Made by a program: the position numbers and the translations under genes. A stretch of DNA of 64,000 bases from Acidobacteriota bacterium (lineage in GTDB: Bacteria > Acidobacteriota > UBA4820 > DSQY01), in contig JAJYCJ010000001.1 of the NCBI GenBank assembly GCA_021778515.1, positions 4,396 to 68,395 of the forward strand. The letters are read 5' to 3'. Positions 1,931 to 52,960 of this stretch are shown here, piece by piece (positions within the stretch are counted from its first letter, which is position 1; each line of letters opens with the position of its first letter). The notes beneath the pieces were generated by a model. That model was given only the letters and a program-made list of their open reading frames with translations, was not told the origin of the DNA and made no database searches.

Positions 1931-3952
1931 ATGCGAAGAGCCTCAATCGCCCTGGCCCTGCTGGCGGTGTGCGTCCTGGCCCTGGGCCAGGCGCCCCCGA
2001 AGCATCCCGTCACGCCCGAGGACATCGTGAAGATGACGCAGTACCGCGGCGGGACCATCTCCCCCGATGGAGCGCGGTTTCTCTACATCACGGCCCGCAC
2101 GGACTACCCCGCCTCCGACAAGACGGTGAGTCACATCTACCTCGTCCCCACCGCCGGTGGCGCCTCGCGGCAGATGACCGCCAGCGAGGCGGGCGAGTCC
2201 TCGCCGGCCTGGGCGCCCGACAGCCGGTCCTTCGCCTTCGTCTCCCGGCGCAATGGCTCCCCGCAGATCTTCCTCATGCCCGTGGACGGTGGTGAGGGGA
2301 TCCAGGTGGGCAAGCTCAAGGTGGCCCCCGCCTCGCCCTTGCGCTTCTCGCCCGACGGCAAAAAGATCGCCTTCCTGGCCGTTCCAGAGCCCACGGCGGA
2401 GCAGAAGGACCGCGATGAGAAGACCGGCGGCGCCGAGGTCATGGAGGCCCCGCGCGACATGACCCAGCTCTTCACGCTGGGCGTGCCCGGCGGCACGCTG
2501 GCCCAGGTCACCCCCGGCAGCTACAACGTGGCCGAGTTCGACTGGGCCCCGGACGGCCGCTCTTTCGCCCTCGTCACCGCCGCGAGCCAGCTCCTCTACG
2601 ACAACATGACCGAGGCCTCCGTGCGCGTGGTCAACCTCAAGGGCGAGACCCTCGCCCGCCTTTCGCCGAAGGCGGGCCCCATCCAGGGTGCAGCGATCTT
2701 CTCCCCCGACGGCACGCGGGTGGCCTGGCGCTACGCCACCGAGGGGCTGAGCGACATGAACGGCGTGGCGGTGGCCTCGGCGGACGGCAAGAGCTTCACC
2801 AACGCCGCCGCGAAGGTGGACTACGGCTTCTTCCAGATCGCCTGGATGGCCGGCGGCAGGAGCCTCATGGCCCTCACCATGGAGGGCACGCGCTCCTGCC
2901 TGCGCCGCCTGGACCTGGCCTCGGGCGAGGCCCGCCTCGTCTACGCCCCCGCGGGCGTGATCTGGGGCTTCCAGATGGACCGCGCGCGCCGCCGCCTCGT
3001 CTTCGCCTTCACCGACCCCCGGACCCCGCGCGACCCCTGGAGCATGAACACCGACGGCACCGACCCCGTCCAGCTCGCCGACGTCAACCCTCAGGTGAAG
3101 GACTGGATCCTGCCCAGGACCGAGCGCTTCTTCTACGAGTCGGCGAAGGGCGTGAAGATCGAGGCGCTCTTCGACCCGGCGGCCATCCCTCCCAAGGCAG
3201 GCATCGCCCCACTCATGGTCATGCCCCACGGCGGCCCCGACTGGATGGACCAGGAGGGCTTCGACCCCTGGGTGGCCTACTTCGCCGGCCAGGGCTACGG
3301 CGTCCTGCGCGTGAACTTCAGGGGCAGCCTCGGCTACGGCATGGCCTTCTACGCCTCCAACCGCGGCAAGGAGGGCTTCGTGGACTACGACGACATCATG
3401 GCCGGCGTGGACACCCTCATCGCCCGCAAAATGGCCGACCCGCAGAAGCTCGTCATCGGCGGCTGGTCGTACGGCGGCTGCATGACCGAGTGGGCCATCT
3501 GCCGGACCGACCGCTTCAAGGCCGCCGTCGTGGGCGCGGGCGTGTCCGACTACATTTCCAACTACGCCCAGTCCGACGTCAACCACGGCCTGGCCGGCGA
3601 GTGGGAGTTCCTCGGCAATCCCTACGACGACCCCGAGGCCTACACGAAGGACTCGGCCGTATTCCACATCCGGTCCGTGAAGACCCCCGTCCTCATCCTC
3701 CACGGCACCGCCGACGAGCGCGTCCCCTACGCCCAGGGCCTCGAGCTCTACCGCGCGCTCAAGACCACGGGCAAGCAGGTGGAGATGGTCTCCTACCCTG
3801 GAGAGGGCCACGGCTTCCGCAAACCCGCCCACGATATCGACCGCCTCAACCGCTGGCTCGCCTTCTACAATAAGGCCCTGGGAATCGGCCCGAAGACGCC
3901 TGAGAAGCCGACCCCAGGTGGGGAGGAGGCATCCCCGCCGAACCCCAGGTAG
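1931..3952 (+). CDS. S9 family serine peptidase (prolyl oligopeptidase / acylaminoacyl-peptidase type) with N-terminal beta-propeller
   Basis: Signal peptide (MRRASIALALLAVCVLALG); repeated SPDG propeller motifs; nucleophile motif GGWSYGG and an alpha/beta-hydrolase C-terminus; RBS GAGGTGA before ATG 1931. Confidence 0.85.
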   Translation: MRRASIALALLAVCVLALGQAPPKHPVTPEDIVKMTQYRGGTISPDGARFLYITARTDYPASDKTVSHIYLVPTAGGASRQMTASEAGESSPAWAPDSRSFAFVSRRNGSPQIFLMPVDGGEGIQVGKLKVAPASPLRFSPDGKKIAFLAVPEPTAEQKDRDEKTGGAEVMEAPRDMTQLFTLGVPGGTLAQVTPGSYNVAEFDWAPDGRSFALVTAASQLLYDNMTEASVRVVNLKGETLARLSPKAGPIQGAAIFSPDGTRVAWRYATEGLSDMNGVAVASADGKSFTNAAAKVDYGFFQIAWMAGGRSLMALTMEGTRSCLRRLDLASGEARLVYAPAGVIWGFQMDRARRRLVFAFTDPRTPRDPWSMNTDGTDPVQLADVNPQVKDWILPRTERFFYESAKGVKIEALFDPAAIPPKAGIAPLMVMPHGGPDWMDQEGFDPWVAYFAGQGYGVLRVNFRGSLGYGMAFYASNRGKEGFVDYDDIMAGVDTLIARKMADPQKLVIGGWSYGGCMTEWAICRTDRFKAAVVGAGVSDYISNYAQSDVNHGLAGEWEFLGNPYDDPEAYTKDSAVFHIRSVKTPVLILHGTADERVPYAQGLELYRALKTTGKQVEMVSYPGEGHGFRKPAHDIDRLNRWLAFYNKALGIGPKTPEKPTPGGEEASPPNPR

Positions 3953-45210: not shown

Positions 45211-46362
45211 TCAAAGCCTGAATTCCAGGCCCTCTTGCAGGAAGGGGTCGCCCACCGGTGTGTCCTCGCCCTTGGCCATGGCTGCACGGGCGGCGAGCAG
45301 GCCCAGCGGCAGGAAGAGGAGGGCGAAGGAGAGCTCGGGCCACCCCAGCCGGACCTTCGCACCCACCGCCGGGAAGATGAGCCAGTAGAGGTCGATCAGC
45401 ATGAAGGCCAGAACCCAGAGGGAGACCCACCGCAGGCGCTTGGGATTGGTCTTGGCCTTCCGGCTCACGAGAGCGAGGAACGGGACGAAGAAGTGGCCGA
45501 TGCCCAGGATGAGCGACAGCGCCAGCCAGCCCCCGGTGGTCCGCTGCTTGAACCAGAAGACCTCCTCCGGCATGTCCCCGTACCACATGAGCATGTACTG
45601 GGCGAAGGCGATGTAGCCCCAGAAGACCGTGAAGGCGAAGAGAAAGCCGCCCAGGTTGTAGAGATGGTCCTTCGTGATCCCGGGCAGTCGTCCGCGATTG
45701 TAAAGGTACAGCGTGCCCAGCGTGGTGGCGGCGAGTCCCGACAGGAAGGTCCCCGCGAAGAGGTAGACGCCGAAGATGTCGCTGTACCAGACGGGCTCCA
45801 GGCTGGAGATCCAGTCGAAGGCCACCGTGGTCAGCGTGAGGGCGAAGATGGCCAACACCAGGGGCGCGTAGCGCCGGAGGCGAACGGTGATCATGGGGTC
45901 CCTGCTTCGGTCCTGCTCGAAGGAGCGCTTCACCACGAGCCGGTAGGCGAGGAACCAGAGAGCCACGCAGGCCAGGGTCCGAATGATGAAAAACGGCGTA
46001 TTGAGCCATGCCGACTTGAGGACCACCGCCGGCACCGACGCGCCCTCGGGCCTCGCCCACGGATAGAGCACGGGCAGGCACAGGAGGGCAGCCACCACCA
46101 GGGGCGTGACCCACAGGGCCAGGCTGGAGAGGCGTTCGGGCACGCGCCTGAGAGGCACGCTCCAGACGGACTGGACCTGGTGCTCCAGGGCCACGATGAA
46201 GAGGCAGCCCAGGCCCACGGCGATGCCGAAGACCATCCAGACGAGCCAGTTGGCCCAGAAGCGCGCCGGCCCCTCGACGAAGTAGGTGGCCGCCGCTCCC
46301 GACAGGCCCACGGCGGAAAGAAGGAGGAGGTTTCTGACCATGGTCCCGCTTCCGCTGCTCAT
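45211..46362 (-). CDS. actF: Alternative Complex III subunit ActF (NrfD-like polytopic membrane subunit)
   Basis: 383 aa, about 10 TM helices, homologous in architecture to ActC; ATGA overlap with the actDE stop; the ORF finder fused it with upstream sequence. Confidence 0.8.
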   Translation of the reverse strand: MSSGSGTMVRNLLLLSAVGLSGAAATYFVEGPARFWANWLVWMVFGIAVGLGCLFIVALEHQVQSVWSVPLRRVPERLSSLALWVTPLVVAALLCLPVLYPWARPEGASVPAVVLKSAWLNTPFFIIRTLACVALWFLAYRLVVKRSFEQDRSRDPMITVRLRRYAPLVLAIFALTLTTVAFDWISSLEPVWYSDIFGVYLFAGTFLSGLAATTLGTLYLYNRGRLPGITKDHLYNLGGFLFAFTVFWGYIAFAQYMLMWYGDMPEEVFWFKQRTTGGWLALSLILGIGHFFVPFLALVSRKAKTNPKRLRWVSLWVLAFMLIDLYWLIFPAVGAKVRLGWPELSFALLFLPLGLLAARAAMAKGEDTPVGDPFLQEGLEFRL

Positions 46363-47489
46363 TGCACGTCCTCCGGCTCTGCGTGCTGGGAGCGCTGCAA
46401 GGCCCTGACGTAATCCACGATGGCCCACCGGTCGTTGGCCGACAGGTCCGCGGCGTAGCTGGGCATGGCTCCCTTTCCCGCGGCAATGACGTAGTAGATG
46501 TAGCCGTCGGGCGCCTCGCGGTAGGTGGAGGCCTGGAGGTCGGCCGGCTTGGCCGTGTAGGCCGAGGTCAGCCACGGCTTGCCCGTCCCCAGGCGGTCGT
46601 GGCAGACGGCGCAGTGGTTGTTGAACAGGTCGCGCCCGGCCTGAAGGACGGCCGGCGTGACCGGGAGGGGGTTGATCAGCTCCTTCCCCGCCTCCTCCGG
46701 GCTCTTGGCCAGCAGCGGCATGTACCCTCGGGCCACGGTCCCGACGGGGGGGAGCTGCATGCCGTGGCCGTCCGCGAAGAAGGAGTCGGCCTTCTGCGCG
46801 TCGAGCCTGGGCTGCACCTCCATGTGGACCATGGGCGGAAGGGTCGGGTAGATCTTGATGGCCCAGGCGGTGCCGAAGCCCGTCACCACGCAGGCGGCGG
46901 TGATGCCGGAGAGGGTCTTGAGCCACCAGCCCAGGCCGGGAGGCGTCGAATCGGGAGCCGCCAGCACCTCCACCTCGGAGCCGCCCGTCTCCAGGAGCGC
47001 CGCGCTCGCCGCCTCCACGTCCAGCACCCCTGCCTCCGGCATGATGAGGAGGCCGAACCTGTCCTTGGTGGTCCCGCGGATGGCCTTGGAACCGAGGATG
47101 GGACTGCCGAAGAAGGGCAGCTTGTTGAAGAGGAAGAGCATGGCCAGCCCGGCGGTGAAGGTGGCGAAGAGCACCGTCACCTCGAACATGACCGGGACGA
47201 AGGCCTGCCAGGAGTTGAAGGGCTTGCCGCCGATCACCAGCGGGTAGTCCACGGCGCTCGTCCACCATTCGAAGAGGAAGCCGCTCACGGCCCCCAGAAC
47301 GGCCATGATGAAGACCAGCGTGCCCAGCCGCGATTTCTTCAGGCCCAGCGCCGCTTCCATCCCGTGGACGGGGAAAGGCGTGTAGGCCTCCAGGCTGGAG
47401 AAACCCCTGGCCTTGATCCCGGGGATCGCATCCAGGAGGGCCTGCGCGGTGGGATAGAGGGCGAGGACTCCGAAGGGCGCCTCAGGCAT
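46359..47489 (-). CDS. Alternative Complex III ActD-ActE fusion (DUF3341 membrane subunit plus monoheme cytochrome c)
   Basis: N-terminal ActD-like domain with TM helices (about 170 aa), and a C-terminal class I cytochrome c with CAVCHD...MPSY; a single 376-aa ORF. Confidence 0.8.
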   Translation of the reverse strand: MPEAPFGVLALYPTAQALLDAIPGIKARGFSSLEAYTPFPVHGMEAALGLKKSRLGTLVFIMAVLGAVSGFLFEWWTSAVDYPLVIGGKPFNSWQAFVPVMFEVTVLFATFTAGLAMLFLFNKLPFFGSPILGSKAIRGTTKDRFGLLIMPEAGVLDVEAASAALLETGGSEVEVLAAPDSTPPGLGWWLKTLSGITAACVVTGFGTAWAIKIYPTLPPMVHMEVQPRLDAQKADSFFADGHGMQLPPVGTVARGYMPLLAKSPEEAGKELINPLPVTPAVLQAGRDLFNNHCAVCHDRLGTGKPWLTSAYTAKPADLQASTYREAPDGYIYYVIAAGKGAMPSYAADLSANDRWAIVDYVRALQRSQHAEPEDVQ

Positions 47490-48870
47490 GGCCCACCTCC
47501 GCTGCGTGTTCGGGCTGGGCGTGGGGCACGTCCATCTTCACCTCGCTCGTGGCGATGACCGGTAGCACGCGTGCGAACAGCAGCACCAGCGTGAAGAAGA
47601 GACCGAAGGAGCCCAGCAGGATTCCGAAGTCCACCAGGGTGGGGATGAACACCCCCCACGACGAGGGCAGGAAGCTGCGGTGGAGTGAGAGGACGATGAT
47701 GGTGTACCGCTCGAACCACATGCCCACCGTGACGCACGACGAGACGAACAACATCACGGGGAAGGAGCGCCTGAACCGGGGCACCCAGAGGAGCTGGGGA
47801 ATGATCACGTTGCAGGTGATGGTGATCCATCCCGCCCACCACTGGTCGCCGAAGACGTAGTTGTAGAAGGTGTACCGGATGTAGGTGTTGGAGCTGTACC
47901 AGGCCGTGAAGCCCTCCATCAGGTAGGAGTAGCCCATCAGGCAGGACATGGTGAGGATCATCTTGTTCATCATGTCCATGTGGGTCATGGTGATGAGGTT
48001 CTCCATGTGCATGGTCTTGCGCACCACGGAGAGCACCAGCACCACCATGGCGAAGCCCGCGAAGATGGCCCCCGCCACGAAGTAGGGCGGGAAGATGGTC
48101 ATGTGCCAGCCCGGCACCAGGGAGACGGCGAAGTCGAAGGAGACCACGCTGTGCACGCTCAGCACGAGGCCGGTGGCGAGGCCCGCCAGCAGGAGGTAGG
48201 CCCTCTCGTAGTGGAGCCAATTCCTCGCGGAGCCCACCCAACCGAGGCTGAGGACCCGATAGATGCCCTTCCGGAGCCTGCTCGTGGTCCGCTCGCGCAT
48301 GGAGGCCAGATCGGGCATGAGCCCCAGGTACCAGAAGAGCAGCGACACGCTGAAGTAGGTGCTGACGGCGAAGACGTCCCAGACCAGCGGGGAGCGGAAG
48401 TTGATCCAGAGGTCCCGCACGTTGGGATAGGGAAACAGCCAGTAGCCGAACCAGGGGCGGCCCACGTGGATCAGGGGGAAGATGCCCGCGCAGCAGAGGG
48501 CGAAGATGGTCATGGCCTCGGCCGCCCTGGATATGGCGTTGCGCCAGCGCTTCCTGAACATGAAGAGGATGGCTGAGATGAGGGTCCCGGCGTGGCCGAT
48601 CCCCACCCAGAAGACGAAGTTGATGATGGGGAAGCCCCATGCCACGGGGACGTTGTTGCCCAGCGTCCCGATGCCCTCGTAAACCAGATAGCCGATGCAC
48701 CCGAATCCCATGAGCATGATGAGGCTCGTGATGGTGATGGCGATGAACCATCCCCGGCCCGGCTTGGTCTCCGGCCACGCCAGCACCTGATCATCGAGGC
48801 TGCCGACGGTGACCGGCCCCTCCATCAGCGGCTGGTGGCGGATCGCTTCGGGAAGCAGAGCCTCAGGCAT
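47482..48870 (-). CDS. actC: Alternative Complex III subunit ActC (NrfD/PsrC-like quinol-interacting membrane subunit)
   Basis: 462 aa, about 10 TM helices, typical ActC N-terminus; 8-nt overlap with the actB stop. Confidence 0.85.
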   Translation of the reverse strand: MPEALLPEAIRHQPLMEGPVTVGSLDDQVLAWPETKPGRGWFIAITITSLIMLMGFGCIGYLVYEGIGTLGNNVPVAWGFPIINFVFWVGIGHAGTLISAILFMFRKRWRNAISRAAEAMTIFALCCAGIFPLIHVGRPWFGYWLFPYPNVRDLWINFRSPLVWDVFAVSTYFSVSLLFWYLGLMPDLASMRERTTSRLRKGIYRVLSLGWVGSARNWLHYERAYLLLAGLATGLVLSVHSVVSFDFAVSLVPGWHMTIFPPYFVAGAIFAGFAMVVLVLSVVRKTMHMENLITMTHMDMMNKMILTMSCLMGYSYLMEGFTAWYSSNTYIRYTFYNYVFGDQWWAGWITITCNVIIPQLLWVPRFRRSFPVMLFVSSCVTVGMWFERYTIIVLSLHRSFLPSSWGVFIPTLVDFGILLGSFGLFFTLVLLFARVLPVIATSEVKMDVPHAQPEHAAEVGHA

Positions 48871-51747
48871 TCTTGTCCTCCCCTGGGACGGCGGGGTTCT
48901 TGAGCTCGGCCATGTAGGTGATGGCCGGCCGCGTGCCCAGCTCCTCCAGAACCTTGAAGCGGCGGTCGCTGCGGGAGAGGTGGGCCACCCGGCTGTCCTT
49001 GTCGTTGAGGTCGCCGAAGACGATGGCGCTCGCGGGACAGGCCGCCTGGCAGGCCGGCACGATCTCCCCGTCGCGGAGCGGGCGGTGCTCGTCCTGGGCC
49101 ACGCGCCTGCCGTTGACGATGCGCTGCACGCAGAAGGTGCACTTCTCCATGACGCCCCGCGGCCTCACCGTGACCTCGGGATTGAAGGCCAGGTCCAGCG
49201 GGTCCTTGATGAAGCTCGTGTAGTCCAGGAAGTTGAAGCGGCGCACCTTGTAGGGGCAGTTGTTGGAGCAGTACCTCGTGCCGACGCAGCGGTTGTACAC
49301 CATCTGGTTCAGGCCGTCGGGGCTGTGGGTCGTGGCCGCCACGGGACAGACGTTCTCGCAGGGGGCGTCGTCGCACTGCTGGCAGAGCATGGGCTGGTGG
49401 ACCACCTTCGGGTTGCCCGCGTCCCCTTCGTAGTACTTGTCGATCCGGATCCACTGCATCTCCCGCCCCCTCGACACCTGCTCGGGGCCCACCACGGGGA
49501 TGTTGTTCTCGGACTGGCAGGCGATGACGCAGCCGTTGCACCCCACGCAAGCCGACATGTCGATGGCCATGCCCCACTTCTCTCCCGTGTAGGGGTGGCC
49601 CTTGTAGAGGGTCACCTCCTGCTCGCCCTGGGGGTGTGCCGCCTCCTTCTTGTACTCGTCGAGGTCCCACAGCCTGACGATGTCGCGGCCCTCCAGGGAG
49701 AAGTGTTTTTGAGTCCTGCACAGCTCGCGATGGCCTCTGGTCGGGATCACGGCCGCATCCGTGCGAAGGAACGGGGAGCCCCCGGAGGCCATGAGGGGGA
49801 AGGCGTTGACGCCGATTCCCGATGCGACCCTGCCCTCCGTGCGCCCGTACCCCAGGGGAAGGGTGAGGACTCCTTGGGCCTGGCCCGGCTGGACCAGCGC
49901 GGGTACCTCCAGGCTCTTGCCGCCCACCTCGATGCGCAGCAGATCTCCGTCCTGCACGCTCAGCCTCTGGGCATCGGCCGCCGAGATCAGCGCGGCGCAG
50001 CCCCAGGTGAGGTCGGTGACGGGTTCGGGCAGCTCCTGGAGCCAGCCGATGTTGGCGTAGCGTCCATCCCACAGCTTCAGGTCGCGCACGAGCACGAGGT
50101 CCATGCCTTGGCCCGCGGGAACCTTCGCCCTGTCAATCGCTTCGACCAGGGCCGCGCTCTTGGGCTGGCGGGGCGCCCTGGGCTCCACATCCAGCCTGAG
50201 CACGCCATCGTGCACCGCCCCGTTCCAGTAGGCCTCGAAGGGCACTGGCGAGGCGGCCGGGTAGACCTCCCTCCGCCAGCGCCCCATGACGTAGAGCCTG
50301 TAGTCCGTCTCCACGGGTGCGCCTATGGCCTTGGCCCACCGCAGCAGGACCTCCTCCGCCTGACGGGTCTGGTAGAGCGGGCGGATGAGGGGCTGCTGGA
50401 GGCTCAGCAGATCCGTTCCCGCCTCGAAGTCCCCCCAGGACTCCATCCAGTGATTCACGGGAAGGACCACCTGGCAGGTCTTGGCCGTCTCGTCTTCCCG
50501 GAGGCCCAGCCGCACCCTGAGGGGCACGCGGGAGAGACCCTGGACGAAGGAGCCCGCGTCGGGCTGGTCGTAGGCCGGGTTCGCACCCCATACAATGGCC
50601 GCCGCGTACACACCGGAGGCGAGGTCCTTGGCGAGTACGGCCATGTCCTCAGGGGCCGCGAGCTGCACGGGCGCAGGCGCGAAGCCGGCGTCCACCGTGC
50701 TGCCCTCGGCGCCCAGCATGGCGTTGAGCAGCGAGACGGCGGCGTGCGCCTCGTAGGGAAGGCTCGGCCCGGCTGCCACGAGGGCCGCAGGACCCGCCTT
50801 GGCGAGGTCGTCCACCATGACCCCGAGGAGATGGAGGTCCAGCCCCTGCGCCCTGGCCACCTCCTTGAGCGCGAAGGGCGCCAGGGTGCTCGACGCCAAT
50901 CCGTCCGGAAGGGCCAGATGGTGGCGCTCGTGGAGCTCCAGCGCCAGGGCGAAAGCCACCGCGGCCGCCGCGGAGGGACGCATGGGAAGGCGGTGGTCCG
51001 CCTTCGTACCCGTGAGCGTCAGCGTGCCCTCCAAGGCGTAGAGCCGGTTCATCGGCTCCGTCGGCGAGGAGAGCCGCCGGTTCGCGGCGAAGCCCCGGAT
51101 GGCCGGGACGGCCTGGTCCATCGTGCCCAGCAGGTCCGCCTCCAGCGCCACGATCACCTTGGCCTTTTCCAGGTGGTAACGCGGGCAGAGGGCCTCGCCG
51201 AACACGGCCTGGGCCGCCGCGCGCCCCGCATGGTCCGCCGCGGGCTCCCACGCGACGTGCCGAAGCGTGGGCAGCACCGATTTCAGGTCGTTCAGGACCG
51301 CCCGCTGGCTCGGGGAGATCACCGCGGGCGTCACCAGGAGCAAGGCCTTGCCGCCCGAGGCGGCCGCCTTCAGGGCCGCAACCACTCGGCTGTCCACCGC
51401 GGCCCAGTCGGCGGGGTGTCCGTCCATCACGGGCTGCCTGAGCCGGTCCGGGTCGTAGAGGCCGATCACCTCCGCCATGATCCGCGGCGAGGTCTTGCCC
51501 TCGAAGAGGGGGTGCTCGTCGTTGCCGTCGATGTGGATGGGCCTGCCCTCGCGGGTCTTGACCAGCACGCCGTAGGGCACGAGCCCCTCCTGGACGGTGC
51601 TGGCGTAGTAGTTGGCCACGCCGGGGATCACCTCCGAAGGCTTCTTGGTGTAGGGAACGATGGTGTCGCCTTCGGGCGCTTGACAGGCGGCCGTGGCGGC
51701 GAGGGCCGCCGAGGCCCCCATGAGGCCCAGGAAGCGCCGCCTGGCCA
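48863..51747 (-). CDS. actB: Alternative Complex III subunit ActB (fused molybdopterin-oxidoreductase-like B1 and 4Fe-4S ferredoxin B2 domains), Tat-exported
   Basis: Tat motif MARRRFLGLMGASAALAATAA with RBS AGGGAG 5 nt upstream of ATG 51747; C-terminal Cys clusters (CVGCNGCVIACQSENN, CQQCDDAPC, CPYKVRRFN); the ORF finder offers an alternative GTG start at 51889 that adds 47 aa. Confidence 0.85.
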
Positions 51748-51881
51748 TGGGCTCCCTGGGCGGCTCCATGGGAGTGAGACCGTTCGGGCTCTCACTGCCA
51801 TCCCATCCGCCCGGGGTCACCGCCGCGGCCTTTGGCGGGAGGACCTTCCAGAAGGCCCTCCGCTTTTCGTCCCTCTCCTCG

Positions 51882-52091
51882 TTAGCCACGGCGTTTCACC
51901 GAGTGGAGCGGGCCGGCCACCCTTCTCGATGGCAGCGGGCCCCTCTGAGCGGCTTCCTCGCCGGCACCGGCCGGTGCGGCCGGGCGGGGGTACTCCCCAC
52001 CCCGCCCCCAGAACCTGCGCCCCAGGGCGAGGTTCCCCAGGAAGGCCGCGAGCATGCCCGCCAGGACCTTTCGACGACTCGTACCGGTCAT
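51882..52091 (-). CDS. Small hypothetical membrane/Tat-like protein (69 aa) between actA and actB
   Basis: ATG 33 nt after the actA stop with RBS GGAGAG; MTGTSRRKVLAGMLAAFLGNLALG hydrophobic N-terminus with an SRRxxL Tat-like motif; high GC3; the upstream part of the listed ORF 51882..52712 is the alternate frame of actA. Confidence 0.3.
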   Translation of the reverse strand: MTGTSRRKVLAGMLAAFLGNLALGRRFWGRGGEYPRPAAPAGAGEEAAQRGPLPSRRVAGPLHSVKRRG

Positions 52092-52123
52092 GGACACTCT
52101 CCTCTGCATCCTTGCCTCGGCTC

Positions 52124-52687
52124 TCATCGGTGACAGGCGTTGCAGTTGGTGGGTCCGGCCTGGATCGGCGAGCCCGGCGGGAGATAGCGCCTCGGGTCCC
52201 GGTGGCAGGCCAGGCAGTGGCCCATCCGCATGTTCATGACGCGCCTCACCCGGTCCATGTCCTGCACGTCGCCGTGGCAGCTCTGGCATGCGATGCCTGA
52301 GTTCACGTGCGGCCGGTGGTCGAAATAGACGTGGTCGGGGAGCTCGTAGATCCGCTTCCAGAGCAGCGGCTTGTTCGATTCGTAGATGGCCGTGAGCTCT
52401 TTGATGTACACGTTGTTGGTCTTGGCATAGCGATGACAGTTCATGCAGGTCTGGACCGCCGGAACGGTGGCGTGCCGAGAGCGCGTCGCGTTCGTATGGC
52501 AGTAGAGGCAGGGGATCCTCATCTGTCCGGCGTGAAGGCGGTGAGAGAAGGGGATGGGCTGTTTCGGGGCATAGCCAAGGACGAATCGGTCCGGCTCCGC
52601 GACCCATCCCACCGTGATCATGGTGATGAGGACGGCCGTTGCGCCGATGGGAATCGCGAACCGGAACAGACGGTCTAGCGGATGCAT
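52124..52687 (-). CDS. actA: Alternative Complex III subunit ActA (pentaheme cytochrome c)
   Basis: Five CxxCH motifs (CLYCH, CMNCH, CQSCH, CLACH, CNACH); N-terminal TM; start at MHPLDRLF with RBS GGGAGGAGG. Confidence 0.85.
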   Translation of the reverse strand: MHPLDRLFRFAIPIGATAVLITMITVGWVAEPDRFVLGYAPKQPIPFSHRLHAGQMRIPCLYCHTNATRSRHATVPAVQTCMNCHRYAKTNNVYIKELTAIYESNKPLLWKRIYELPDHVYFDHRPHVNSGIACQSCHGDVQDMDRVRRVMNMRMGHCLACHRDPRRYLPPGSPIQAGPTNCNACHR

Positions 52688-52960
52688 AAACCTCCTCCCA
52701 ATGGGGCCGCACAATTCTCTCTGCCTGGTTCCATCACGGCCTACTATCCCACAAGACTATCGTGAAATGGAATGTGAACGTGCCTCATCCATCCAAATCC
52801 TCTCGTGTAACCGGGCCCCGTTTTCGATTATTCCCCGCCGCCGCGGCCGTCCGTGAGGGGCCGATAGGGCCACGCGGTCCGTCGGCCACGGCAAGAAGAA
52901 AGCGCGCCTCGCGCGCGGGGTGGCTCGGCGTGCGGCCTGAGCCGGCGCCGGGGCCCGTCG

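Follow-up and report, generated by a model that had tools for sequence, protein, structure and literature searches.

Between actA and actB in the window (the whole stretch of 64,000 nucleotides that was analysed), there is room for a short ORF. The questions raised by this locus are whether the ORF is a gene, where actB begins if it is, and what its product might contribute to the ACIII encoded by the surrounding operon.

The act operon

The genes of the operon are as follows.

52124..52687, minus strand: actA, pentahaem cytochrome c with an N-terminal TM helix, 187 aa, five CxxCH motifs (from domain matches)
51882..52091, minus strand: the small ORF ('actX'), 69 aa plus TAA, read as a conserved protein-coding gene
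48863..51889, minus strand: actB, 1008 aa, fused molybdopterin-like B1 and 4Fe-4S B2 domains (from PDB matches)
46359..48870, minus strand: operon context downstream of actB, comprising actC and the actD-cytochrome c fusion
47482..48870, minus strand: actC (NrfD)
46359..47489, minus strand: actD-cytochrome c fusion

The domain matches of ActA are to Cytochrome_C7 (E=1.3e-14) and to a QrcA-like family (E=1.4e-24), and its homologues, of 187-189 aa, are encoded upstream of the small ORF at all loci checked. ActB matches PDB chains 8k9e_B, 6f0k_B, 6btm_B and 6lod_B. Farther downstream are a cytochrome c gene and then caa3-type oxidase genes. The gene order of the act operon is repeated at two further loci, L102 and L103, and at every locus where the small ORF was examined it lies between actA and actB and overlaps the actB start, which places it in the ACIII operon. 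No promoter and no terminator are predicted in the actA-actB spacer, the actA-actB region has no Rfam match, and RNA folding around the actB start yields a stability like that of shuffled sequences (z=0.04), without a sequestering hairpin. With no promoter, terminator, Rfam match or unusual RNA structure between them, actA, the small ORF and actB form a single predicted transcription unit.

Position and start of the small ORF

The signals at the two ends of the small ORF are listed here.

52097..52104, minus strand: SD-like GAGGAGAG, 5 nt 5' of the small-ORF ATG
51896..51900, minus strand: GGTGA, SD-like element for actB, within the S-V-K codons of the small ORF and 6 nt before GTG 51889
51882..51889, minus strand: 8-nt overlap GTGGCTAA, in which the actB GTG (51889..51887) falls within the last two codons of the small ORF and is followed by TAA

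The ORF had been proposed in a sequence-only reading of this DNA, and most of its description holds. It runs on the minus strand from ATG 52091 to TAA 51884..51882 with exactly the translation that was quoted, its putative RBS is the SD-like element at 52104..52097, its 3' end overlaps GTG 51889 by 8 nt, and a table of ORFs shows it solely as the tail of a 276-aa ORF (51882..52712). The gap to actA, given as 33 nt, is 32 nt, as the actA stop TGA is at 52126..52124. High GC3 had also been cited, and the in-frame value is indeed 0.81, but this is weak evidence when the other frames have 0.75 and 0.68; it is also lower than that of actA (0.85), actB (0.92) and actC (0.94). Two additional in-frame ATGs are found 5' of the start, at 52127 (81 aa), which overlaps the actA stop as ATGA, and at 52109 (75 aa). 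Matching purine-rich SDs (taGGAGcggcga-ATG and gaAGAGGAGtcacgag-ATG) precede the ORF at loci L004-L012.

The GC content of the window is 67%, at which an ORF of 69 codons is unremarkable, and long spurious ORFs are frequent within the window. The small ORF is rated above chance because it is conserved elsewhere, and not because of the ORF itself.

Distribution among ACIII loci

The earlier reading had suggested that absence of the ORF from the same position in related ACIII loci would count against it. The opposite was found. The ORF is in the same place in 11 of the 12 genome loci whose ActB is related (51-94% identity), with ten clear copies and one degenerate copy in an Elusimicrobia MAG (L009). 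The other carriers are Acidobacteriota, Myxococcota-type, Ignavibacteria and Bacteroidota contigs, in which homologues of 59-89 aa lie between actB and a pentahaem actA of ~187 aa. Homologues were recovered as 12 clusters in a search of 5.8 G proteins and as 27 representatives in a search of 1.8 G, and a second subfamily includes 74 clusters from Bacteroidota and Ignavibacteria. The homologues are 55-89 aa long, and every named database copy is called 'hypothetical protein'. All nine of the distant members whose surroundings were inspected have a cytochrome c7-like ActA on one side and, on the other, a large gene with which they share 4-11 nt, and for two of these nine the full actC, actD-cytochrome c and actF context is visible.

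In a metagenome scan, where loci were picked by ActA similarity alone, the ORF was found at 25 of 69 evaluable loci using an HMM that contained 20 sequences from that very sample; an independent HMM found it at 11 of 80 loci of the ActA-based sample at E<1e-3. Of the related loci, 64% lack the ORF, among them close relatives in which actB abuts actA, and hence it cannot be essential. Where it has been lost, the actA-actB spacer shrinks to 0-30 nt. A core subunit would be present in all ACIII clusters; the small ORF is not, and its product is therefore at most accessory, like ActG and ActH.

Selection on the encoded peptide

In the frame of the small ORF, dN/dS is 0.1-0.8, while the other frames are mostly >1 in the second group and ambiguous in the first group. 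Among close relatives, pN=0 and pS=0.19 over the last 15 codons (pN/pS 0.00), compared with pN/pS of 0.87 for the linker (residues 26-54) and 0.67 for the N-terminus. Within the C-terminal SVKR, the K and R codons vary at their third positions alone. Across loci, the S (TCG/GCG) and V (GTG) codons hardly vary at their third positions, which suggests a dual constraint, from the peptide and from the SD of actB. The C-terminal motif is also retained where it is displaced from the actB start (L008 and L017) and in the low-GC versions from Bacteroidota and Ignavibacteria. Selection at the peptide level is thus shown by the codon comparisons, and on this sequence evidence the small ORF is a real, conserved protein-coding gene and not a chance high-GC ORF.

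Junction with actB and the actB start

An ATG or GTG within the last codons of the small ORF is found in the same layout in 19 of the 19 loci compared, and in the distant members gene callers put the actB start 4-11 nt ahead of the small-ORF end. The last two residues of the small protein are set by the overlapping ATG or GTG. This constant overlap of the small-ORF stop with the actB start points to translational coupling of the two genes.

The start of actB had been regarded as ambiguous between GTG 51889 and an internal ATG at 51747 preceding MARRRFLGL. The ambiguity can be resolved, and GTG 51889 is favoured. The internal ATG is in fact at 51748, with a further in-frame ATG at 51769, and although the AGGGAG sequence described as its strong RBS is present, it is just 3 nt from ATG 51748. 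In all homologous loci a start codon, ATG or GTG, overlaps the small ORF at the corresponding position, and Met41 and Met48 of the window ActB are Ile in relatives. Codons 2-47 of actB have a pN/pS of 0.34 among close relatives. The motif FW(K/R)xL in the n-region, of the FW[KR]SLxE type, aligns with Chloroflexus ActB (8k9e_B) in an alignment that begins at residue 6 and spans residues 6-47, and the ActB of L006 and L012 matches that of the window from residues 5-6. Starting at the GTG gives an extended signal.

51686..51889, minus strand: ActB signal peptide, residues 1-68, predicted extended Tat/lipoprotein signal

This signal has an n-region of residues 1-47 (with FWKVL), the twin-arginine sequence M48-A-R-R-R-F-L, an h-region and a lipobox (ATAA/C69) whose Cys codon is at 51685..51683. 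Mature F. johnsoniae ActB begins at a Cys that aligns with C69. ActB signal peptides of 74 aa in R. marinus and 73 aa in Roseiflexus have been documented (PMC5928083, PMC7439408). There is no notable difference between these and the window ActB, and the long signal is already known biology. A settled actB start removes an annotation ambiguity of 47 residues.

Architecture of the small protein

Members of the family share a layout of three parts, namely a Tat-like N-terminus, a fast-evolving basic linker and a conserved C-terminal motif.

52020..52091, minus strand: residues 1-24, Tat-signal-like region, T-S-R-R-K-V-L followed by a 16-residue uncharged A/G/L-rich stretch
51930..52019, minus strand: residues 25-54, variable basic Pro/Ala/Gly-rich linker, predicted disordered
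51885..51929, minus strand: residues 55-69, SRRVAGPLHSVKRRG, conserved C-terminal motif

The Tat-like motif and hydrophobic stretch that had been pointed out are present, as T-S-R-R-K-V-L (RR codons at 52076..52071), and the RR is kept in the family, where the N-terminus takes the form S/T-R-R-x-(F/V/L)-(L/F) followed by 15-20 uncharged residues. RR is found in 34 of the 34 members retrieved by HMM. Among 20 syntenic ORFs, 14 have RR, five have RK and one has a single R, and Tat dependence may therefore not be universal. Locus L039, a close relative of the single-R ORF, has the identical single R. The median uncharged run of the h-region is 16 residues, with a mean KD value over the best 15 residues of ~2.0, and R or K directly follows the uncharged stretch as a basic c-region (e.g. 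LALG-RRFWGR). The signal end is variable, with A-x-A in P0014, P0025 and P0017, Pro at +1 in others (LLAGA-P) and no consistent AxA; a lipobox Cys at this position was not found in any of the family members inspected.

In the AF2 prediction, residues 6-28 are helical and the tail is disordered, with confidence rising a little at the C-terminus. Block averages of pLDDT in the linker are 51-64, and residues 41-44 score below 50. Across the family the tail is strongly basic (median charge +7), and by the positive-inside rule this would favour a cytoplasmic tail if insertion were not by Tat. The family C-terminal core is (I/V)-x-(I/V)-x-P-x-x-(S/A)-V-x-R.

Comparison with known proteins

Pfam and NCBIfam scans of the ORF and 46 family members identified no significant family. 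Sub-threshold matches were solely to other Tat-signal entities, namely MelC1, TIGR02811 and the Rieske/PetC anchor. A profile search of all PDB chains (E<=10) returned noise and generic Tat-signal matches only, and the family profile matches no chain of the solved ACIII structures 6btm, 6f0k, 6lod and 8k9e, which are from four other organisms. A motif HMM found no fusion of the C-terminal motif to ActA, ActB or other large ORFs. No indel in the first ~350 mature residues of ActB tracks the presence or absence of the ORF, and its presence is not correlated with an extended ActB n-region.

The papers on ACIII structures and on the Melioribacter genome and multi-omics name no gene between actA and actB; in Melioribacter, Mros0045 and Mros0044 are annotated as adjacent. 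A literature search on small Tat-anchored subunits yielded general Tat background only. Published ACIII structures include six core subunits, ActH and one unidentified periplasmic density (PMC5928083, PMC7439408).

Among the closest parallels are ActH (Rmar_1979) and ActG of Rhodothermus marinus and Chloroflexus, which are small, lineage-restricted and non-catalytic additions to ACIII, as the small protein is proposed to be. ActG is a predicted single-TMH protein that is missing from many act clusters, and R. marinus ActH is an accessory subunit that was found only through MS and cryo-EM and has a long loop in the ActA/ActB/ActE cleft (PMC5928083). However, ActH is a three-helix bundle whose loop is made up of the final ~50 residues, its homologues are confined to close relatives, and it is identified only by a locus tag, which is read as lying outside the act cluster (PMC5928083). 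The small-protein family, in contrast, consists of proteins of 55-89 aa, always encoded between actA and actB with overlap of the actB start, in several phyla. The small-protein profile returned no 6f0k chain among all PDB chains at E<=10, and homology to ActH is not indicated.

TIGR02811 ('formate dehydrogenase region TAT target') describes proteins of <=70 aa that carry a twin-arginine signal and, at the C-terminus, a conserved motif, and that are encoded beside subunits of a molybdopterin-family (CISM) enzyme. The match of the small proteins to this model is sub-threshold (best E=0.079, 2 of 34 members; 0 of 12 in the second subfamily) and is put down to the Tat-like N-terminus that both have; they differ in C-terminal motif and in partner enzyme. 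The weak HMM matches to PF25471, PF10399 and NF047833 (Rieske/PetC anchor and MelC1 families) recall the Rieske/PetC anchor and the tyrosinase chaperone MelC1, in which an RR and an uncleaved or escorting signal deliver or anchor a redox partner. However, those proteins carry folded cofactor or chaperone domains, whereas the small protein has a predicted disordered basic tail of ~45 residues, and its presumed partner ActB also has its own Tat signal.

Possible roles of the small protein

The suggestion that the ORF encodes an extra ACIII subunit is upheld as far as the gene is concerned: synteny, conservation across phyla and purifying selection at the codon level make it a real ACIII-linked gene. 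Membership of the complex is only putative. Our preferred reading, to which we give about an even chance, is that the small protein is a Tat-targeted, optional accessory or stabilising subunit, or an assembly factor, of one ACIII subtype, namely that with a 187-aa ActA and an ActD-cytochrome c fusion. Translation would start at ATG 52091 and be coupled to that of actB via the 8-nt overlap. The N-terminus would direct the peptide to the Tat pathway, possibly along with the FeS-loaded precursor of ActB, a product of the same mRNA, and would then be kept as a membrane anchor or cleaved. The C-terminal motif could dock, extended or as a beta-strand, on the periplasmic ActA/ActB module. We infer Tat export, the membrane topology, binding to ACIII and stoichiometric coupling with ActB from the features described above.

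Alternatively, the product may be a small trans-acting biogenesis factor that is not periplasmic, either membrane-anchored or with a cytoplasmic tail. During assembly or Tat targeting, its basic tail would bind either the ActB precursor (e.g. the long, partly acidic n-region) or ActC, ActD or ActF on their cytoplasmic side. The tail net charge of ~+7 fits the positive-inside rule, the extended ActB n-region is unusual and D/E-rich in Bacteroidota-type loci, and the gene is optional and coupled translationally to actB. However, L034 and L009 have the ORF with a short ActB n-region, L031, L035, L044 and L046 have a long n-region without the ORF, and the RR with a moderately hydrophobic A/G-rich stretch is better read as a Tat signal with its N-terminus inside. 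We regard this role as unlikely.

A cis-acting role would liken the small ORF to SecM, MifM and VemP. In each of these, a small ORF encodes a targeting signal at the N-terminus, a variable spacer and a conserved motif at the C-terminus, and lies directly before a gene whose product relies on a translocation pathway. Here, the main role of a Tat-substrate leader peptide would be to control or localise actB translation. The signal-like N-terminus would be just exposed when the ribosome reaches the stop, with the C-terminal motif still in the exit tunnel, and the ribosome would pause at the SD and start of actB until contact is made between the N-terminus and the membrane or Tat, after which termination-reinitiation would yield ActB. 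Several features are consistent with this, namely a targeting signal followed by a near-neutral linker and, 3-10 residues short of the stop, a conserved motif; an actB SD inside the small ORF and a stop that constantly overlaps the actB start; the weak GTG start of actB in the window; a fairly constant distance from the RR to the C-terminus (~54-63 residues in eight members, measured by hand) with an n-region of varying length; and dispensability of the ORF in many lineages. Against it, the C-terminal core is unlike any known arrest motif, including those of SecM, MifM and VemP, Tat is post-translational and has no known pull on nascent chains, and a stall at this position would hide rather than free the actB SD, which lies within the ORF and not in a hairpin that could sequester it. 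A conserved peptide is also not needed for simple coupling, and L008 and L017 keep the motif though the stop/start junction has moved. A leader function is judged improbable, and its specific form as a Tat 'monitoring' leader, which would pause until the twin-arginine N-terminus is engaged and so gate or localise the synthesis of FeS-loaded ActB, is a long shot.

That the ORF is non-functional, either a chance ORF in a GC-rich spacer or a decaying duplicate of the ActB signal with conservation due to nucleotide constraints from the actB SD and start, is extremely improbable: long spurious ORFs are common in the window, the GC3 contrast is weak, the S and V third positions make the SD-like GGTGA, the overlapping ATG or GTG dictates the last two residues and the N-terminal third has a dN/dS of only 0.67 among close relatives, but architecture and length are kept from AT-rich genomes (L056, L060 and L062) to the 67% GC of the window, the Bacteroidota/Ignavibacteria subfamily retains the motif 8-10 codons away from the actB SD, L008 and L017 retain it in a displaced position, there is no Rfam match or RNA structure, and the frame-specific dN/dS, the absence of nonsynonymous change in the motif and the collapse of the spacer on loss of the ORF all favour a gene. 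The earlier suggestion of a remnant of a duplicated signal peptide fails for the further reason that it is the C-terminal motif, not the signal-like part, that is most conserved and under strong purifying selection.

Implications

ACIII stands in for the cytochrome bc1 complex in many bacteria, and its subunit list has already been revised by structures, as ActH and the unidentified density surfaced only in cryo-EM. The small gene described here is conserved and sits within the operon of a widespread ACIII subtype; annotation pipelines overlook it or call it 'hypothetical'. With the family defined by an N-terminal RR, the C-terminal motif and a position between actA and actB, >100 protein clusters can be annotated. 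If the small protein were a translocation sensor of the SecM/MifM type, it would be the first for Tat. If it is a true subunit or helps in assembly, this ACIII subtype is incompletely modelled, and heterologous expression without the small gene, or from an actB that begins at the internal ATG, may fail.

The small ORF between actA and actB

The act operon, which encodes alternative complex III (ACIII), is on the minus strand of the window. The features at the actA-actB junction are as follows.

ATG 52687 to TGA 52126..52124, minus strand: actA, 187 aa, with five CxxCH motifs
52104..52097, minus strand: SD-like GAGGAGAG, with a 5-nt spacer before ATG 52091
ATG 52091 to TAA 51884..51882, minus strand: small ORF, 69 codons
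GTG 51889, minus strand: opening of the actB frame, overlapping the small ORF by 8 nt (GTGGCTAA)

The 69-aa translation matches exactly the sequence quoted in the sequence-only reading, which had also correctly reported the RBS and the 8-nt overlap. The small ORF is downstream of actA as stated there, but the distance from the actA stop to ATG 52091 is 32 nt rather than 33 nt. The high GC3 that had been claimed is indeed highest in frame (0.81 vs 0.75 and 0.68 in the other two frames), but this contrast is a weak signal taken alone. Spurious long ORFs are numerous in the window, and the mere presence of the small ORF therefore proves nothing. An antisense ORF of 1163 aa (48809..52300, plus strand) opposite actB and the small ORF was read as the usual high-GC antisense-frame artefact and not as a gene. 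Two further in-frame ATGs are found upstream, at 52127 (81 aa, overlapping the actA stop as ATGA) and 52109 (75 aa), and some gene callers have chosen the 81-aa version in close relatives (database entries P0113 and P0121). As neither start is conserved beyond the close clade, ATG 52091 with its SD is preferred.

Conservation and distribution

The small ORF is a conserved part of the act operon. When the DNA upstream of actB was read in 12 genome loci, an ORF of 66-89 aa was clear at the equivalent place in 10, from Acidobacteriota, Thermoanaerobaculia, a 'delta proteobacterium' and Myxococcales. Only L011 among the 12 lacks it. Upstream of actB in L009, from an Elusimicrobia MAG, is a degenerate, divergent 48-aa version, MPAIVSRLDFLKSCLL...PRDSVKRHE*, in which R-L replaces R-R and the start overlaps the actA end; it still has the SVKR motif at its C-terminus and still overlaps the ATG of actB.

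A profile search of 5.8 G proteins recovered 12 clusters of the family. Searched exhaustively with HMMER, 1.8 G representatives yielded 27 at E<1e-3, with lengths of 64-89 aa throughout. For seven distant members the contigs were located. Six of them have the ORF directly behind a cytochrome c7-like ActA of 182-189 aa, the exception (L020) being a 520-bp contig too short to show the upstream ActA. In six, the ORF overlaps the large downstream gene by 4-11 nt, the exception (L019) being a contig that ends before this gene.

An unbiased sample of 80 metagenome loci, picked by ActA similarity alone, brought out a second subfamily, more divergent than the first, in Bacteroidota/Ignavibacteria-type loci of low GC. 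This subfamily adds 74 protein clusters, none of which contains a Pfam domain; those named by their source are all 'hypothetical'. Two of its members were found in full operons (actA, small ORF, actB, actC, actD-cytochrome c, actF). The small ORF is present in 25 of the 69 evaluable ActA-related loci, as detected with a final HMM built with 20 of those same sequences, and an independent first HMM detected it in 11/80 loci at E<1e-3. The sequence-only reading had counted a lack of conservation at this position against the ORF; both the genome and the metagenome loci show it conserved.

In loci without the small ORF, close relatives included, the actA-actB spacer is just 0-30 nt or the genes overlap. 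Because it is missing even in close relatives, the small ORF must have come or gone more than once in evolution, and it is accessory. Metagenome locus L033 (about 2064..2316) has a 251-nt spacer with a degenerate His/Ala-rich version ending in ...DSVNRHGQT*, and L036, closely related to it, lacks the spacer entirely; the two look like snapshots of decay and loss.

Anatomy of the protein family

A variable n-region of 2-20 residues precedes S/T-R-R-x-(F/V/L)-(L/F). The RR pair is found in 34/34 HMM-retrieved members, and the 20 syntenic ORFs have RR (14), RK (5) or a single R (1). Next comes an uncharged, A/G/L-rich run of about 16 residues, usually with basic residues after it, in agreement with the Tat-like N-terminus described earlier. 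AF2 predicts a helix at residues 6-28. The linker (about 25 residues) is basic, poorly conserved and predicted to be disordered, and the tail is very basic (net charge +7). The C-terminal motif has a family-wide core, (I/V)-x-(I/V)-x-P-x-x-(S/A)-V-x-R, seen as PSR-x-V-x-P-x-P-H-S-V-K-R-(H/R)-G-stop in the Acidobacteria-type and, for example, as KVKINPLAVSRTKK followed by 5-8 more residues in the Bacteroidota/Ignavibacteria-type.

Selection on the peptide

pN/pS among four close genomes
Small ORF, N-terminal 25 codons: 0.67
Small ORF, linker: 0.87
Small ORF, C-terminal 15 codons: 0.00 (pS 0.19)
actA: 0.08
Mature actB: 0.19

Conservation of the C-terminus is partly nucleotide-level, as the final two positions, (H/R/N)-(G/A/V), are dictated by the overlapping start of actB (CAT-GGn and CGT-GGn contain ATG-G and GTG-G) and the S-V codons (TCG GTG A), whose third positions hardly vary, make an SD-like GGTGA 6 nt before it. 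However, the K and R codons of SVKR vary at synonymous third positions only, L008 and L017 retain SVKR though the junction has shifted 4-6 codons away, and in the second subfamily, where the DNA is AT-rich, 8-10 codons separate the motif from the downstream actB SD. Together with the regional pN/pS values, this shows that selection acts on the peptide too. Over the whole small ORF, in-frame dN/dS is 0.1-0.8; in the second clade, the other frames are mostly >1. The spacer is not accounted for by any Rfam family, RNA structure, promoter or terminator. On these observations, the small ORF is a protein-coding gene.

The actB start

The start of actB had been considered ambiguous between GTG 51889 and an internal ATG reported at 51747, which is in fact at 51748; a second internal in-frame ATG is at 51769. 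Five lines of evidence favour GTG 51889. An ATG or GTG occupies the equivalent position in every homologous locus, and is the position gene callers use. Relatives (L004, L005 and L012, for example) have Ile in place of Met41 and Met48 of the window, which rules out either internal ATG as the conserved start. Codons 2-47 have a pN/pS of 0.34. Residues 6-47, including the FWKVL motif, align to the n-region of Chloroflexus ActB (8k9e_B), and mature F. johnsoniae ActB (6btm_B) starts at a Cys aligned to C69, after a lipobox-like ATAA. Finally, long ActB signal peptides are on record, 74 residues in R. marinus and 73 in Roseiflexus (PMC5928083, PMC7439408). On this evidence, GTG 51889 is the actB start and gives a predicted 68-residue Tat/lipoprotein signal; such an extended ActB signal is already known biology.

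In L032 (about 2254..2593), the ActB Tat signal has a His/Asp repeat, HGHAHGHDHDHDHGHDHDHGHDHDHGHDHGHDHG, inserted in its n-region immediately ahead of an FWRTLEE motif. This stretch is later cleaved off, and the repeat may be an expansion of low complexity or one that binds metal.

Operon context

The genes were assigned using Pfam and NCBIfam.

actA, minus strand: cytochrome c7/QrcA-like
actB, minus strand: fused QrcB-like and QrcC-like domains, 1008 aa
actC, minus strand: NrfD family
46359..47489, minus strand: actD-cytochrome c fusion, ActD domain (PF11821, E=9e-53) plus cytochrome c domain
Farther downstream: a cytochrome c, COX1, COX3 and COX2

On gene content, the locus is a genuine ACIII-caa3 operon. 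The nearest genomes by ActB are Acidobacteriota MAGs (93-94% identity). A GC-rich, terminator-like hairpin (GCGCGC-GAG-GCGCGC, then a T-rich tail; 52902..52916, minus strand) just upstream of actA is probably where the transcription unit before it stops and where the act operon has its 5' boundary.

The C-terminal mono-haem cytochrome c domain on ActD makes an ActD-ActE-like fusion. The ActD-cytochrome c fusion is also found in small-ORF-bearing Ignavibacteria/Bacteroidota loci (L102, 12639..13802; L103, 12619..13758), and the small ORF thus seems to mark one ACIII operon subtype, which appears to comprise a 187-189-aa ActA, the small ORF, ActB, ActC, ActD-cytochrome c and ActF.

Possible function

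As the end of the small ORF overlaps the actB start and holds the actB SD, translation of actB, which starts with a weak GTG in the window, is almost certainly coupled to it. The extra small ACIII subunit that had been proposed is real as an ACIII-linked gene that is conserved, syntenic and under peptide-level selection; its function as a subunit we infer. Our preferred reading, to which we give an even chance, is a Tat-targeted, optional stabilising or assembly subunit of ACIII. The RR-bearing N-terminus would serve as a Tat signal or signal anchor, and the peptide would be exported, possibly along with ActB, which has to fold and take up its four FeS clusters before Tat can export it. The linear motif at the C-terminus would dock on the periplasmic ActA/ActB module. 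A precedent is R. marinus ActH, a late-recognised accessory with a loop that fills the ActA/ActB/ActE cleft (PMC5928083). No match to the family was found in solved ACIII structures. Further weak points of this reading are that many lineages do without the gene, that some members lack RR and that the small-protein family has no clear cleavage site.

Unless insertion is by Tat, the tail charge of +7 would point to the cytoplasm, and a membrane-anchored factor with a cytoplasmic tail is an unlikely but conceivable alternative. Slightly less probable again is a leader or arrest peptide acting in cis to gate translation of actB. Suggestive as its architecture is, this reading has both the geometry and the post-translational nature of Tat against it. 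A non-functional ORF or remnant was rejected given the peptide-level selection and conserved C-terminal motif. The remnant of a duplicated signal peptide suggested earlier is not supported either, as the C-terminal motif (pN/pS of 0.00 over the last 15 codons) is better conserved than the signal-like part.

Relationship to known families

The small-protein family has no match among Pfam and NCBIfam families or PDB chains. Sub-threshold matches were only to Tat-signal-bearing entities, namely MelC1, the Rieske/PetC anchor and TIGR02811, the formate-dehydrogenase-region TAT target. TIGR02811 is similar in being a small Tat-signal protein beside a CISM-type enzyme, and ActG and ActH in being accessory ACIII subunits, but the family was found to belong to none of these. 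It was therefore filed as a new, unnamed family, putatively of the kind 'small accessory protein of a respiratory complex'. The ACIII literature consulted lists ActA-F, ActG, ActH and one unidentified density, and in the Melioribacter papers actA and actB are annotated as direct neighbours. A new principle would be established only if the leader peptide reading were true. For a respiratory complex with structures from four organisms, the family is an addition that is concrete and can be tested, and an annotation fix for the actB start also follows.
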